Below, one piece after another: positions 1 to 5,189 of a stretch of 64,000 bases of DNA. Within the stretch, counting starts at the first letter, position 1. Every line of letters starts with the position of its first letter. The stretch is taken from the IMG/VR virus record IMGVR_UViG_3300037467_001303, positions 40,866-104,865 of that record; one strand, given 5' to 3'. The position numbers and the translations under genes are program-made. The DNA is from a virus. The notes beneath the pieces were generated by a model that was not told the DNA's origin, did not search any database, and was given only the letters and a program-made list of their open reading frames with translations.

Positions 1-390
1 GCCGCGGACCACCCGGCACCACTCGGGTTTCACCCCGAGCTGTTCGAGGAAATCGCGGCGGTAGGCGAAGCTGTTGCGGTCGTCCTTGAGTTCTCCGACC
101 TCGTCGTGGTATTGCACGTCGCCGCCTCCTTCAGGTTCCGTCCCCAGTAGAGGGATCAGTGTGTAATTAGCGCCAGTTGGTACATTAACACTAATTCCGG
201 CTGACAACCATTCAACTGTTGTTTCTAGCGCCTCGGCAATTTTCTTTAACCGATGGTATGCCGGTATCGCCCCTTTTTCCTCCCATCCGTGGACCGCCTG
301 CTGTGTCACGCCGGATTCGATGCCGAGGTCATTGCGGCTCATTTTGAGTTCTTCGCGTCTCTGTTTGATGCGTGCACCGATGGTCGACAT
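1..390 (-). CDS. cI: Phage CI-like repressor (HTH_3 plus linker towards a probable S24 peptidase domain), truncated by the window edge
   Basis: Not in the ORF track. Manual translation: MSTIGARIKQRREELKMSRNDLGIESGVTQQAVHGWEEKGAIP...KIAEALETTVEWL...SFAYRRDFLEQLGVKPEWCRVVRG. GGAGAA RBS upstream; divergent from cro. Confidence 0.9.
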   Translation of the reverse strand, partial: MSTIGARIKQRREELKMSRNDLGIESGVTQQAVHGWEEKGAIPAYHRLKKIAEALETTVEWLSAGISVNVPTGANYTLIPLLGTEPEGGGDVQYHDEVGELKDDRNSFAYRRDFLEQLGVKPEWCRVVRG

Positions 391-446
391 GGCCAATTCT
401 CCGTCATTGGGAAGTATTCACGAGTAGCAACATAACACAGCGCACA

Positions 447-506
447 TTAAAGTGGCGCTTGCCCGTTTCAAGTTTTACTTGAAGTTTCAAGTAGGACTTG
501 TAAAAT
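447..506. promoter_or_regulatory. Three 17-bp operators and rightward promoter PR
   Basis: TTAAAG-TGGCG-CTTGCC (447-463), TTCAAG-TTTTA-CTTGAA (467-483, perfect arms) and TTCAAG-TAGGA-CTTGTA (486-502). -35 TTGAAG (479-484), 16-bp spacer, -10 TAAAAT (501-506). Confidence 0.75.
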
Positions 507-512
507 GCCCTC

Positions 513-788
513 ATGAAAAAACTTTCCGCACGGATGCTCGCCGCCCGCCTGCGCCGCGAACGCAGGCACCTCGACCGCGCCATCGAGCACGTCGGCTCGC
601 AGTCCAAGCTGGCCCGCCTGCTGGGCGTGTCGCCCCAGGCCGTGCGGCAGTGGTACACCAACGAGACCGGCGTGCCGCCGCGCCGCTGCCCGCAGATCGA
701 ACGCCTCACGCGCGGCAAGGTCATGTGCGAGCAGCTGCGCGAGGAATTCGAGTGGGTGCGCGTCATCAGGAAAGGTGCCCGCGAGTGA
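513..788 (+). CDS. cro: Cro/YdaS-like repressor
   Basis: AIEHVGSQSKLARLLGVSPQAVRQW...VPPRRCPQIERLTRGKV pattern; divergent from cI. Confidence 0.88.
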   Translation: MKKLSARMLAARLRRERRHLDRAIEHVGSQSKLARLLGVSPQAVRQWYTNETGVPPRRCPQIERLTRGKVMCEQLREEFEWVRVIRKGARE

Positions 789-1213
789 AGCGCACGACGC
801 CCATGAAACGCACCGGCTTCAAGGCCAGGGCGCCCGGCGACACGCCGGCCAAGGCGCCGTACCCGCGCGTCACGTTCGCCCGGAAGGAGGGCCTGAAAAC
901 CCGCCAGCGCGCCGTCACGCCCGAGGAAAAGGTCCTGTGGGACCGCCTGGCCAACGAGGTCGGCTGTGTCGCCTGCCTGGTGGCCGGCCTGCCGACCTCG
1001 AACCACGTCTCGATCCACCACATCGACGGCCGCACCAAGGAAGGTTGCCACCGCAATGTCCTTCCCTTGTGCGCGGGCCATCACCAGCAGGGCACCGGCA
1101 ACGACAAGAGCCTGGTGGCCGTGCACCCGAACAAGGCCCGTTTCGAGAAGCTGTACGGCACCCAGGAATACCTGCGTCTGTACGCGTTCAACCTGCTGGA
1201 GGTGCTGCCGTGA
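785..1213 (+). CDS. ref: Ref-family RecA-dependent HNH nuclease
   Basis: GTGA overlap with the cro stop; basic N-terminus, GCVAC, IHHIDGRTK, VLPLCAGHHQ, VHPNKARFEKLYGT. Confidence 0.8.
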   Translation: MKRTTPMKRTGFKARAPGDTPAKAPYPRVTFARKEGLKTRQRAVTPEEKVLWDRLANEVGCVACLVAGLPTSNHVSIHHIDGRTKEGCHRNVLPLCAGHHQQGTGNDKSLVAVHPNKARFEKLYGTQEYLRLYAFNLLEVLP

Positions 1214-1518
1214 GCGCCGGCCTGCCGATGGATGCCGAGCTGGTCGAGCTGGTCGACTCCCTGCGCGACGAGATCGACGTGCTGGAGGCCCAGCTGGCCG
1301 CGCTGGAGGCGGGCGAGCATGGCGAGGCGCTGAAAGCCGAGATCCGCAAGCGCTTCGGCATCGACCGCCGCCTGCAGCAGAGCATGGAACAGGTCAAGGC
1401 GATGGAAGCGACGATCCGCCGTCACGAAAAATGGCACGAGAAGGTCGCCGCACTGGTCGGCACCCGCAATCGTAACGCCATCCTCGAGATCATCCAGGAC
1501 CTGCGGGCGCGCCCATGA
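1210..1518 (+). CDS. Hypothetical coiled-coil protein
   Basis: Coupled by GTGA and ATGA overlaps on both sides; typical codon bias. Confidence 0.7.
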   Translation: MSAGLPMDAELVELVDSLRDEIDVLEAQLAALEAGEHGEALKAEIRKRFGIDRRLQQSMEQVKAMEATIRRHEKWHEKVAALVGTRNRNAILEIIQDLRARP

Positions 1519-3026
1519 CCGAGCTGGCCGTGCCCGACATCTACGCCGGCCTGCGCGGCTACCAGATCGCCGGCATCGAGGCGATCCGCCACGCGATCGC
1601 GGCCGGCAAGCGCCGCATCTGCCTGGTGGCGCCGACCGGCTCCGGGAAAACCAAGCTGGCCGCGTTCATGGTCCGCGAAGCGCGCCGCAAGATGAAGAAG
1701 GTCGCCTTCGTGTGCGACCGCATCAACCTGATCGACCAGACCAGCCGCGTGTTCGACGCCGAGGAGATCCCGCACGGCGTGATGCAGTCCAACCACTACC
1801 GCGTGGTGCCGTGGGAGCGCGTGCAGGTGTGCTCGGTGCAGACCCTGGCCCGGCGCAAGTGGCCCGAGGCCCAGCTGGTCCTGGTCGACGAATGCCACTC
1901 GGTGAGCCGCACCGTCACCCAGAAGATGGCGGCCGAACCCGACACCATCTTCGTCGGCCTGACCGCGACCCCGTTCACGAAGGGCATGGGCAAGCTGTAC
2001 GACGCCATGATCAACGTGGCCACCACCAACGAACTCATCAACACCGGGTTCCTGGCGCCGTACCGGATCTATGCCGCGCGCGAGCCGGACATGACCGGCG
2101 TGCCGGTCATCGGCGGCGAGTGGGAAGTGCGCGAGACCAGCAAGCGCGCCCTGGCCGTGGTCGGCGACTGCGTGGCCGAGTACCTGAAGCTGGGACAAGG
2201 CCGCAAGTTCATCTGCAGCGCGGTCGACACCGCCCACGTGCAGGAGCTGGAGCGCCAGTTCATGGCCGCCGGCGTCATCACCCGGGCCTACACCTACCGC
2301 GAGGACGACATCGAGCGCGCCGAGGTGGTCGAGGAATTCCGCCGGCCCGACTCCAGCATCCGCGGCCTGATCACCGTGACCGCCGCCAGCAAGGGTTTTG
2401 ACGTGCCCGACATCGGCGTGGTCATCATGGCGCGCCCGTTGCGCAACTCGCTGGCCGAATATATCCAGCTGTTCGGCCGGGGCCTGCGCATCAGCGAGGG
2501 CAAGGACGCCTGCATCGTGCTGGACCACTCCGGCAACTCGGAGCGCTTCTGGGCGCGCTGGACCCGCTTTTTCGCCGAGGGCTGCCTGGAACTGGACAAG
2601 GGCAAGCAGGGCCGCAGCAGCAGTGCCAAGGCCGACAAGGAAATCAAGCCGGTGAAATGCCCGTCGTGCGCGCACCTGCACGACCCGCTGCCGTACTGCC
2701 CGGCCTGCGGCCACGTGTACCCGCCCAAGCCGGCGCTGCTGCACAAGCCCGGCAGCCTGGTCGAGCTGGTCGCCACGCGTGACGCCAGCCTCATGGTGGC
2801 CGAGCTGTACCCGCAGATCGTCTCCGAGGCGATCCGCCTGGGCAAGGGAGAAAGCTGGGCCAAGGACAGGTACGCCCAGATCACCGGCCAGCCGCCGGGC
2901 GTGGCGTTCGCCGACGTGGTGCCGGTCGAGGCCGGGCGCGAGGTCAAGGGCAAGCTGCGCTCGATCAACATCGCCTGGGCCAAGGCGCGCATGAAGGCCG
3001 GCCAGCGCCTGCGGGGTGGTGCCTGA
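1515..3026 (+). CDS. Superfamily 2 DEAD/DEAH-box helicase with C-terminal Zn finger
   Basis: APTGSGKT, DECH, GLTATP, KGFDVPD, QLFGRGLR, CPSC...CPAC. Confidence 0.93.
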   Translation: MTELAVPDIYAGLRGYQIAGIEAIRHAIAAGKRRICLVAPTGSGKTKLAAFMVREARRKMKKVAFVCDRINLIDQTSRVFDAEEIPHGVMQSNHYRVVPWERVQVCSVQTLARRKWPEAQLVLVDECHSVSRTVTQKMAAEPDTIFVGLTATPFTKGMGKLYDAMINVATTNELINTGFLAPYRIYAAREPDMTGVPVIGGEWEVRETSKRALAVVGDCVAEYLKLGQGRKFICSAVDTAHVQELERQFMAAGVITRAYTYREDDIERAEVVEEFRRPDSSIRGLITVTAASKGFDVPDIGVVIMARPLRNSLAEYIQLFGRGLRISEGKDACIVLDHSGNSERFWARWTRFFAEGCLELDKGKQGRSSSAKADKEIKPVKCPSCAHLHDPLPYCPACGHVYPPKPALLHKPGSLVELVATRDASLMVAELYPQIVSEAIRLGKGESWAKDRYAQITGQPPGVAFADVVPVEAGREVKGKLRSINIAWAKARMKAGQRLRGGA

Positions 3027-3916
3027 TGGACTTCTACAACACCCTGCTGGCCGCCGGCTTCCTGCCGCGCGAGGTCGCCCCGAACGGCAAGTGGTATCGC
3101 TGCGCCACGGCCGACAAGCCGAAGAAGAAGAACGGCGCCTACATGCTGCGCATCGACGGCCGCCGCGGCTACTACAAGGACTACGCGGTCGACGAGGAGT
3201 GGATCGAGTGGACCGACGACACCCCGGTCTCGCCGATCGAGAGAAAGCGCATCGAGCGCGACAACGCGCAGCGCCGCCAGCGCGAGCGCGAGAAGGCCGC
3301 GCGCGCCTACCAGGGCATGGTCCGCTACTACCAGTCGCTGCCGCGCCTGTACGACGGCCACCCGTACCTGGCCCGCAAGGGCCTGTCCATGCTCGGCGGC
3401 GACAAGCTGCGCCTCGATGGCGAGGTGCTGGTCTGGCCGCTGTTCAGGGACGGGCGCCTCGCCACCGTCCAGCGCATCTGGCCGGACGGCACCAAGCGCA
3501 ACTACACCGGCTGCTCGACCAAGGGCGTCTCGCTGCTGCTGACCCGCCCCGGCGCCGTCCTGCACGGCTTCGCCGAAGGGTTCGCCACCGGCCTGGCGCT
3601 GTTCCAGACCCTGGCCAACAGCCAGATCGAGATCTGCCTGGACGCCGGCAACCTGGTCGAGGTGGTTTCGCGTTCGACCGTGGCCGGCCTGGCCGTGGTG
3701 TGCGGCGACAACGACTGGGAGACCTGCGAACGCCGTGGCTTCAACCCCGGCGTCGAGAAGGCCACCAAGGCGGCCGAGGTGCTCGGCTGCGGCGTGGCCT
3801 ACCCCGAGAACATCGTCGGTTCGGACTGGGCCGACGCGCTGCTGGAGTGGGGAGAAGAGGGGCCGCGACGGCTGCGCATGGCGATCATGCGCGCGGCGAA
3901 GCCGGTGATCCGGTAG
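3026..3916 (+). CDS. Toprim-domain DNA primase
   Basis: HPYLARKGL, AEGFATG, DAGNL, CGDND, SDWAD motifs; TGATG coupling to the helicase. Confidence 0.88.
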   Translation: MDFYNTLLAAGFLPREVAPNGKWYRCATADKPKKKNGAYMLRIDGRRGYYKDYAVDEEWIEWTDDTPVSPIERKRIERDNAQRRQREREKAARAYQGMVRYYQSLPRLYDGHPYLARKGLSMLGGDKLRLDGEVLVWPLFRDGRLATVQRIWPDGTKRNYTGCSTKGVSLLLTRPGAVLHGFAEGFATGLALFQTLANSQIEICLDAGNLVEVVSRSTVAGLAVVCGDNDWETCERRGFNPGVEKATKAAEVLGCGVAYPENIVGSDWADALLEWGEEGPRRLRMAIMRAAKPVIR

Positions 3917-3928
3917 CCGCACAGGCAG

Positions 3929-4110
3929 CGCACTGGTCGGGTCAGAAGACGACAGCGGTGCGTGGTGAGGCTCCTACTGTGGGAAGTGTCTGAAACAGGA
4001 GCGATGGGCGGCGAAGCCAGCACCCATGACACGCAAGGCTGGCGCGTCGTGCGGCTCCGTCGGAGAAGTGCGTAAAGGCAGGCGTCAGGGAAGGCTACGT
4101 CTGCCCACCA
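3929..4110 (+). ncRNA. Candidate structured RNA or ssDNA element (multi-helix junction with pseudoknot)
   Basis: About seven complementary segment pairs in an ORF-free gap; detailed in findings. Confidence 0.5.
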
Positions 4111-4191
4111 TCAGAGAAACGGGGTTGCGCAGGCGGCAGCACAGAGAGAAGCAGGAAAGCGGGCAGTACCTATAACCAGCAAGGGGAACAC

Positions 4192-4764
4192 ATGAAGATC
4201 GAGATCATCAGCATCCTGGACCGCAGCGGCTCGATGTCGCACCTGCGCCACGACACCATCAACGGCTACAACGGCTTCCTGTCCGAGCAGAGGACCGTGC
4301 CCGGCCAGGCGCGCGCGACCCTGGTCCTGTTCGACGACAAGATCGACACCCTGTACGAGGGTGTCAACATCGCGCACCTGGGCAACCTGACCAGCGTGCA
4401 CTACGAGCCGAACGGCACCACGGCGGTCTGGGACGCGATCTGCCGCACCCTGCTGCGCCAGCGCGCGCGCATCACCGCCGAAGGCTGGGCCGACAAGGTG
4501 ATCGTCAACGTCGTCACCGACGACGGCGACAACGCCAGCAAGGACTTCACCGAGGCCAAGACCCGCGCCCTGCGCCGCGAGGTCGAGCAGGAGAACGGCT
4601 GGATCGTGCGCTACGACGCCTGCGGCAAGAAGGCAGAGCTGGGCGGCCAGAACCTGGGCATCGACCCGAAGTACCTGCGCACCTTCGCCGGCAACGCGCA
4701 GGGCGTGGCCGACACCTACGCGACCATGAGCGCGTTCGCCACCAGCGTCCGCACCAGCGCCTGA
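4192..4764 (+). CDS. vWA domain protein
   Basis: MIDAS motif ILDRSGSM, T-A-V-W-D-A-I, VVTDDGDNAS. Confidence 0.88.
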   Translation: MKIEIISILDRSGSMSHLRHDTINGYNGFLSEQRTVPGQARATLVLFDDKIDTLYEGVNIAHLGNLTSVHYEPNGTTAVWDAICRTLLRQRARITAEGWADKVIVNVVTDDGDNASKDFTEAKTRALRREVEQENGWIVRYDACGKKAELGGQNLGIDPKYLRTFAGNAQGVADTYATMSAFATSVRTSA

Positions 4765-5189
4765 TGCCGCGCCTGCCACGTCCTCCGATGCCGGTCGCGC
4801 CCGCGGTGCGCAAGATCCGGGTGACGCGCGAGTTCGAGAAGGATTTCAACAAGGTCGCCTGGTTCTACGACTGGGAGAAGGCCGACATCGACTTCGAGAA
4901 ATCGCGCATCCGCGTCAAGCAGGCCGCCATGGACGACATCCCGGTCCTGGCCCGCGTGATCCGGGCGCTGGAGGTGGTGGCAAGGCACTACGGCTGGACG
5001 GTCGAGGAGATGGGACAGTGGCGCAGTCCCCTGCGCCACCCCGGCCCCGACCGCGATTTCATCCTCACCCTGGCGATGGCCCTGCAGCACGGCTACCGCC
5101 AGACCCCTGGCAACAACCACCAGCGCCTGGGCGAATGGCTGGCCGAGAACGGCCTGGACCCGGTCTATTCCGAAGGAGACGTGCGATGA
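4764..5189 (+). CDS. Hypothetical protein
   Basis: TGATG coupling; codon bias. Confidence 0.7.
   Translation: MPRLPRPPMPVAPAVRKIRVTREFEKDFNKVAWFYDWEKADIDFEKSRIRVKQAAMDDIPVLARVIRALEVVARHYGWTVEEMGQWRSPLRHPGPDRDFILTLAMALQHGYRQTPGNNHQRLGEWLAENGLDPVYSEGDVR

Follow-up and report, generated by a model that had tools for sequence, protein, structure and literature searches.

The element described here lies on the + strand of a 64,000-nucleotide stretch of viral DNA (the window, part of the complete 104,865-bp viral record IMGVR_UViG_3300037467_001303), in the gap behind a coupled pair of helicase and primase genes. Taken together, the observations are probably best explained by a member of the RNA family RF02932 that has an extended fold of ~195 nt and acts at the RNA level. 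Membership of this phage and prophage family is itself close to certain. In a cmscan search of Rfam 15, RF02932 (Betaproteobacteria-1 RNA) matches 3926-4047 (+) over model positions 1-120 of 120, scoring 93.4 bits (gathering score 49.4; E 3.9e-16), and is the single Rfam family matched in the whole window. A permissive search (E up to 1) of 3700-4400 returned RF02932 alone, with no match to a self-cleaving ribozyme family, to C4 or to IsrK. ARAGORN finds neither tRNA nor tmRNA in the whole window, in agreement with an earlier reading of the same DNA (the initial annotation), which had seen no tRNA. Unpaired sequences that are invariant in the family are present in the window, namely GUCGG in the loop of hairpin P1, CUGUGGGA and CUGAGA in that of P2, and GGYGGCGAAG before P3.

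The initial annotation had proposed a structured, pseudoknotted and unannotated non-coding RNA of the + strand, and had named an Rfam match beforehand as the result that would remove its novelty. The structured, pseudoknotted RNA stands; with a match to the whole RF02932 model, 'unannotated' does not, and nor does its novelty, the family being already catalogued. Overall, what had been observed is partly confirmed and its interpretation partly supported. We take Weinberg et al. 2017 to be the source of RF02932, and the family presumably occurs in Betaproteobacteria, often in prophages. A literature search found no paper that mentions RF02932 or gives the motif a function, and the motif is not mentioned in the main text of the comparative-genomics survey PMC5737381.

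The window RNA and the Rfam model agree in the whole-model match, in hairpins P1-P3, in the invariant loop and junction sequences, and in a phage or prophage setting. The model differs in that it ends at 4047 and has a structure line of three plain hairpins; it is without a pseudoknot stem (PK-A), two helices (P4 and P5), an ACCA tail and a duplicated word (X and X′), which are common to ~80 of 85 family members. Conservation continues past the 3′ end of the model to ~4119, in close relatives and across the family, so that the conserved RNA extends from ~3926 to ~4119 (+) and is ~75 nt longer than the 120-nt model.

Comparative support for the extended fold

Relatives were collected by a pattern made from two invariant stretches of the family, which found at least 118 viral stretches as well as prophage copies in Caballeronia and Rugamonas; loci sampled from these score 85-108 bits with the Rfam model. 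After false matches and duplicates were discarded, the working set held ~85 distinct sequences from ~60 lineages (loci are numbered with the prefix L). Because the pattern demanded CTGTGGGA and GGGNGGCGAAG, the invariance of these anchors among the relatives is partly an artefact of the collection. The structure was tested by pair counts on a 44-sequence MAFFT alignment, set against shuffles and against slid partners, with anchored counts in Python for some helices; unless another number is given, the counts below refer to these 44 sequences. For the whole model, 84.3% of cells are paired compared with 68.8% in shuffles, and the covariation score is 0.440 compared with 0.181 in shuffles (reached by 0 of 500) and with 0.06-0.10 when partners are slid by 1-3 columns. 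The 44-sequence count understates P4 and P5, since MAFFT misaligns parts of both.

Covariation and folding energy relative to shuffles had been named together as a check on the element, and the two diverge: covariation exceeds the shuffled controls as just described, but the folding energy is no better than theirs. The z-scores of the minimum free energy (MFE) are -1.29 for the + strand of the gap, +0.19 for its - strand and -1.10 for 3926-4110, where 25 of 200 shuffles fold as well; the gap, which had been called 'almost fully pairable', is therefore not pairable beyond chance. As these scores are not significant on either strand, the single-sequence fold carries no evidential weight, and it departs in detail from the family structure. 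With pairing within chance at 65-70% GC, real stems can be separated from chance ones only by comparing relatives. The comparison refutes the view that the element is chance pairing in a GC-rich spacer with no function: although z-scores of -1.1 to -1.3 agree with that view, the Rfam match (E 3.9e-16), the extensive covariation and the conservation in more than 100 viral contigs do not.

All of the stems listed in the initial annotation are present in the letters; about half of them are not kept in relatives, so that the structure drawn there was about half right. CGCACTG/CGGTGCG and GCTCCT/AGGAGC correspond to P1 and P2 and have comparative support, with both-side changes at 9 of 14 pairs in P1 and compensatory changes in all six pairs of P2. 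GCCAGC/GCTGGC had been labelled a loop-loop match; the pairing holds and the label does not, as this is a true stem, Rfam's P3, with 98% of cells paired and compensatory changes at two pairs. ATGGG/CCCAT is a real pseudoknot stem (PK-A) crossing P3 and is absent from the structure line of the Rfam model. At the innermost position of PK-A, the 56 distinct sequences show just two combinations, U.G (35) and C.A (21), a pattern that we read as classic covariation of same-shaped (isosteric) wobble pairs; its outer pair is A-U in 20 sequences, G-C in 19 and U-A in five. PK-A and P3 are predicted to form an H-type pseudoknot.

Helix P4, which had been missed, starts right after the CGNGU that follows P3 and ends right before the conserved U(A/G)AAGG. 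Counted over 26 distinct combinations of its arms, pairing at the first four pairs is 95%, compared with 44% (66% at most) in 2000 shuffles, and 5-6 pair types occur at each position; in the alignment, the outer pair forms in 43 of 44 sequences, with five pair types. The earlier hairpin GGCAGGCGT/ACGTCTGCC (4077-85/4097-4105) is upheld as P5. It is predicted in 39 of 41 distinct relatives (the fold of L131 and L134 retains the upper hairpin alone), arms of the same RNA have a duplex energy of -11.5 kcal/mol compared with -7.4 for arms of unrelated RNAs, and a G.U pair of the window P5 is replaced by A-U in L005 and L006. The 3′ domain is found in ~80 of the 85 distinct sequences, Caballeronia prophage copies included; ACCA stands 3′ of P5 in at least 56 of the 85, with other tails in ~19 and no such domain in ~3.

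The remaining proposed stems were not borne out. Only 6 of 42 distinct relatives could form the closing stem TGGTG/CACCA, CTCCG/CGGAG has a 1-nt loop as drawn (an equivalent stem being possible in 7 of 42), and GACACGC/GCGCGTC overlaps P3 and P4 and shows no covariation. An alternative pairing proposed by RNAalifold, GGGYGGCG/GYGGCUCC, was rejected; it involves invariant columns and clashes with the covarying PK-A. Every tail variant would allow CACCA to pair with GUGGG of the P2 loop, but with invariant columns no covariation signal is possible. G.U pairs were found on the + strand only, as the initial annotation had indicated. The most likely architecture, in which we have high confidence, is P1, P2, the H-type pseudoknot, P4, a junction, P5, a (C)ACCA tail and X′ (Table 1).

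Table 1. Features of the RF02932 element and of the adjoining locus, in window coordinates.
Feature	Position	Strand	Description
P1 hairpin	3926..3965	+	Outer arms 3926-35/3956-65; inner GUCG/CGAC 3936-39/3950-53
P2 hairpin	3970..4002	+	Arms 3970-75/3997-4002; loop with conserved CUGUGGGA and CUGA(A/G)A
PK-A pseudoknot stem	4005..4026	+	4005-4009/4022-4026 (U-A, GGG/CCC, then C4009.A4022); crosses P3
P3	4016..4043	+	GCCAGC 4016-21 / GCUGGC 4038-43; Rfam consensus structure
P4 (outside the Rfam model)	4048..4072	+	CGUGC 4048-52 / GUGCG 4068-72; loop GGCUCCG (4053-59) plus X
X, first copy of the word, UCGGAGAAG	4060..4068	+	P4 loop, 3′ half, immediately behind GGCUCCG
Junction U(A/G)AAGG between P4 and P5	4073..4078	+	AAGG nearly invariant in a family alignment
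P5 hairpin (outside the Rfam model)	4077..4105	+	GGCAGGCGU 4077-85 / ACGUCUGCC 4097-4105; loop with conserved AGGnnnGGCU
Single-stranded tail CACCA	4106..4110	+	Family form ...CC-ACCA or GCYC-ACCA
X′, second copy of the word, UCAGAGAAA	4111..4119	+	Directly after ACCA; conservation among close relatives ends here
SF2 helicase gene	1515-3026	+	Translationally coupled to the primase gene
Toprim-type DNA primase gene	3026..3916	+	phrog_2249 DNA primase, E 2.7e-34; weak Pfam Toprim_3 match
Downstream gene, phrog_7371	4192..4764	+	Opens a further coupled gene block
Conserved GCAGTACCTATAACCAGC	4163..4180	+	Just 5′ of the ribosome-binding site of the next gene

A word shared by the P4 loop and the 3′ end

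The P4 loop follows the family pattern G-Y-GGCUCC-R and then X, a word of 8-9 nt. Within a phage, X and X′ are identical at 6.9 of 8 positions (46 distinct pairs), compared with 3.4 of 8 between unrelated phages. They also change together among close relatives (the window, L219, L182 and L167), as in GAGAAG/GAGAAA in the window, GAGGUG/GAGGUC in L219 and GGGGGAA/GGGGGUC in L182. The columns of X′ are the only ones in the alignment that covary with X, and they do so by identity; no alignment column shows Watson-Crick covariation with X. X = X′ is kept even in variants without GGCUCC and ACCA. Given this identity within phages, the joint changes, the covariation by identity only with each other and the retention in variants, comparison of the sequences indicates that the pair is under selection for identity. 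Mismatches between the copies are skewed (G in X, A in X′, 24 versus 9).

No other place in the window matches the reverse complement of CCA-X′ or of GGCUCCG-X, and the best sites complementary to X or X′ in 35 loci lie at scattered positions. A third copy of the word, as in iterons, was represented by chance-level matches only. Pairing between the GGCUCC loop and a G-rich run after X′ was considered and rejected; it reaches 8 bp in the window, but 4.46 compared with 4.47 in shuffles across the family. The P5 loop of the window (4085-4092, UCAGGGAA) is one position off X′ at 4111-4118 (UCAGAGAA), and that of L172 agrees with X at 9 of 10 positions by eye and 7 of 8 in an 8-mer search. This resemblance is absent in most lineages and is probably a coincidence among purine-rich sequences.

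Flanking repeats recall two phage immunity RNAs, the CI RNA of phage P4 (seqA/seqC) and the C4 antisense RNA of P1/P7 (PMC3632133). Like the window element, these are small phage RNAs in an operon beside a primase-helicase gene. They are said to be cut from a longer transcript and to be flanked by two direct, phage-specific short copies that are complementary to sequence inside the RNA (seqB; a′, b′), details for which Sabbattini et al. 1995 and Citron & Schuster 1990 are reportedly the sources. The RF02932 element differs from them in having no complement of X in the RNA or within 5-10 kb; repeats complementary to a loop of the RNA were found neither in the RNA nor in the locus. The 3′ end invites a different comparison, with the tRNA acceptor-T minihelix and tRNA-like 3′ ends, with which it shares a 9-11-bp hairpin followed by single-stranded ACCA. 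It differs from tRNA in having no cloverleaf, a tail of 4-8 nt, no ACCA in about a fifth of variants, and no G3.U70.

A hairpin flanked by two near-identical sites could also be a processing module, in which self-processing or nuclease-guided cuts (for example by RNase P at the P5 minihelix) after CCG-X and CCA-X′ free or remove the P5 domain. P5 with ACCA resembles an RNase P minihelix substrate, and the P4 CI and P1 C4 RNAs are reportedly excised from longer transcripts. We nonetheless regard this as very improbable, as no Rfam ribozyme family matches, the ACCA tail is not universal, and a cut before P5 would part the conserved core from the conserved 3′ domain.

Transcription, replication context and mode of action

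The 275-nt gap 3917-4191 is the sole gap between the coupled helicase, primase and downstream genes, as the initial annotation had recorded, and the stop codon of the primase gene lies 10 nt upstream of the start of the RNA. No sigma-70 promoter or intrinsic terminator was found in 3500-4500, which bears out the earlier statement that no U-tract terminator is present. Across lineages, RF02932 is always co-directional with the neighbouring genes. A primase-family open reading frame (ORF) ends just 5′ of the RNA in 16 of the 48 lineages with enough upstream sequence, and the typical order of the module is ParB-like gene, helicase, primase, RNA. Other neighbours comprise a RecE-like exonuclease, a replication initiator, primase/helicase, RusA, a ParB-like protein and the small terminase, and the downstream genes vary among lineages.

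In 22 of 58 lineages a long hairpin and T-tract lie 5-25 nt upstream of P1, with a near-consensus, same-strand sigma-70-like promoter ~110 nt further upstream in the same lineages. The leader so defined is a ~110-nt structured RNA that ends in the hairpin and T-tract immediately before RF02932; examples, 110-180 nt upstream of P1, are L131:170-345, L137:5940-6115 and L168:600-775, with ~20 other lineages. The promoter-plus-hairpin leader has no Rfam match. Its layout recalls the lambda PR′-6S-tR′ unit or an attenuator, in which case RF02932 would be made by read-through of the terminator.

These surroundings raise the question of a cis-acting leader or intergenic element of the message that controls what lies downstream, whether by put-like antitermination (as in HK022), as a riboswitch-like device or as a stabiliser of the distal message. 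The element is always upstream of, and co-directional with, further genes; it directly follows the promoter and terminator-like hairpin in the 22 lineages, and hence lies within a long leader; the window has no promoter or terminator between the element and the neighbouring genes; and an invariant core with a pseudoknot is what RNAs that bind a ligand or a polymerase typically have. However, the downstream genes are diverse (vWA-like protein, RecE-like exonuclease, replication initiator, primase/helicase, TerS), the 3′ part is conserved, unlike the variable expression platforms of riboswitches, X and X′ have no complementary switching partner, and the ribosome-binding site (RBS) of the gene at 4192 lies at a distance of ~60 nt and does not pair with the element. 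Neither two segments competing for one complement nor a conserved class of downstream gene, as expected of a riboswitch or attenuator, was found, and control in cis is in our view unlikely.

A second alternative is a folded single-stranded DNA (ssDNA) origin or priming site, of G4 or ssi type, for the adjacent helicase and primase, in which X and X′ would be iteron-like protein sites, about five helical turns apart. The RNA stands right behind the primase even where the primase/helicase homologues are 27-40% identical to those of this phage, and elsewhere it stands beside genes for replication initiators, primase/helicase or recombination. The spacing of X and X′ is 47-56 nt in most sequences with a plain CCR-X repeat, and the word is phage-specific, as iterons are. 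The cumulative GC skew of the 105-kb genome has its global maximum at 40-46 kb and its minimum at 97-103 kb; the maximum coincides with the helicase-primase-RNA module (window ~1-5000), and the RNA lies at 44.8 kb. The sign of this turn is that conventional for a terminus, and may merely reflect gene content; we draw no conclusion from it.

Known G4-type and ssi signals are likewise multi-hairpin elements beside primase genes, but they are DNA hairpins without pseudoknots, whereas RF02932 is flanked by transcription signals and mostly lacks a primase beside it. No primase adjoins the element in two thirds of lineages, many lineages have promoter and terminator signals on its strand at its flanks, a pseudoknot that combines isosteric U.G / C.A covariation with numerous G.U pairs is a signature of RNA, and only two copies of the word, with no more iterons, are present. 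A priming signal in ssDNA is thus disfavoured relative to a role as RNA, and is quite improbable. That the element works as RNA we hold with considerable confidence, because its G.U pairs are on the + strand only, PK-A shows the U.G / C.A covariation, transcription signals flank it and it is co-directional with its neighbours.

Because no promoter or terminator lies nearby in the window, the RNA would be transcribed with the helicase and primase genes, at the distal end of their message. It would then probably be trimmed into a discrete, stable species, the 3′ end of which, a hairpin followed by ACCA, is similar to the acceptor end of a tRNA and would withstand 3′ exonucleases. The pseudoknotted core, rich in invariant unpaired bases, would bind a partner, either a protein or a small ligand, and the two identical words would give this interaction its phage specificity. 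We offer such a mechanism, of a processed, stable RNA that acts in trans, tentatively, as possible rather than probable.

Several observations weigh against an RNA of this kind. Among the sequencing runs searched, the sequence is present in DNA metagenomes only and in no RNA run, and for this reason the ends of the RNA are taken from where conservation stops. There is no universal protein partner of RF02932 among 60 lineages, the commonest, primase, occurring in 18. A complementary partner for X/X′ was found neither in the RNA, nor in the 5-10 kb flanks on either strand, nor in the window. The folding energy is not significant in sequence of 65-70% GC. ACCA is replaced in ~19 of 85 variants and the length of the tail varies from 4 to 8 nt, so that mimicry of a tRNA end is not universal. 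Lastly, the link to primase and helicase, together with a switch of GC-skew polarity within ~4 kb, leaves room for a role in replication.

Distribution, neighbouring sequences and meaning for the family

The phage sequence is present in soil and rhizosphere metagenomes, as found by a search of sequencing runs. Eight viral loci have primases 77-100% identical to that of the window; four of them carry RF02932 (94-96 bits), and the other four, from three contigs, have unrelated sequence in the same gap. The latter is a different GC-rich, hairpin-rich sequence of ~200-270 nt (L003:3889-4180, L004:3892-4165 and L008:3889-4180, L007 being the same contig as L003), beside primases that share 77-83% identity with that of the window. 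Rfam gives no match to this sequence at E up to 1; it may be an RNA that replaces RF02932 without being homologous to it, or the beginning of a longer downstream ORF. RF02932 was found in 2 of 151 sampled genomes of the order of Caballeronia, and is a sporadic RNA of mobile elements. A blastn search of the gap against 50,697 annotated phage records gave no match, and a peptide-pattern scan found no relatives of the primase in cellular genomes.

Two long, overlapping + strand ORFs (452-1213 and 775-1518) lie 5′ of the helicase gene, one of which bears a RecA-dependent nuclease / HNH-like domain; in related modules their position is occupied by a ParB-like gene. On the other side of the element, the phrog_7371 protein has no Pfam match at E 0.01. 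A DxSxS-like motif (D-R-S-G-S) at its N-terminus, set in a beta-strand-like context, is suggestive of a von Willebrand A / MIDAS fold.

Between the element and this gene, GCAGTACCTATAACCAGC is identical in L002, L005, L006 and L009 despite variable flanks, and probably lies outside the RNA; AGTACC-type motifs stand at a similar distance in ~15 other lineages. A conserved motif of GCAGTACC(T)nTA type occurs 30-90 nt 3′ of X′ in several otherwise unrelated lineages (window 4163-4180; L149, L161, L232, L185, L200, L205, L152 and L168, at +150 to +225 from the CTGTGGGA anchor), with two tandem copies in L149, L161 and L232. The window has no further copy of it. It may be a promoter or operator of a non-sigma-70 system. 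As a repeated phage promoter, GCAGTACCTATAA was rejected; the window holds one exact copy, with near matches at chance level.

The window element is one further member of an orphan RNA family that uncultivated phages carry in abundance (in more than 100 viral contigs) and that is tied to phage replication and recombination modules. The current Rfam model covers ~60% of the conserved RNA, and misses the pseudoknot, two helices and the tRNA-like end. A more speculative reading, which we think rather unlikely, is that RF02932 RNAs are doubly structured RNAs of ~195 nt that carry a phage-specific 'address' word as a new specificity device. If it is true, a word of 8-11 nt (CCR plus 8 nt) would be shown both in the P4 loop and, single-stranded, after a tRNA-like hairpin-ACCA end, and would evolve in concert without a complementary partner in cis. 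A phage replication or recombination factor would thereby distinguish its own RNA or genome from those of relatives or, alternatively, the word would guide a cut or join at two matching sites. The concertedly evolving X/X′ word offers a concrete experimental handle on the function of RF02932.

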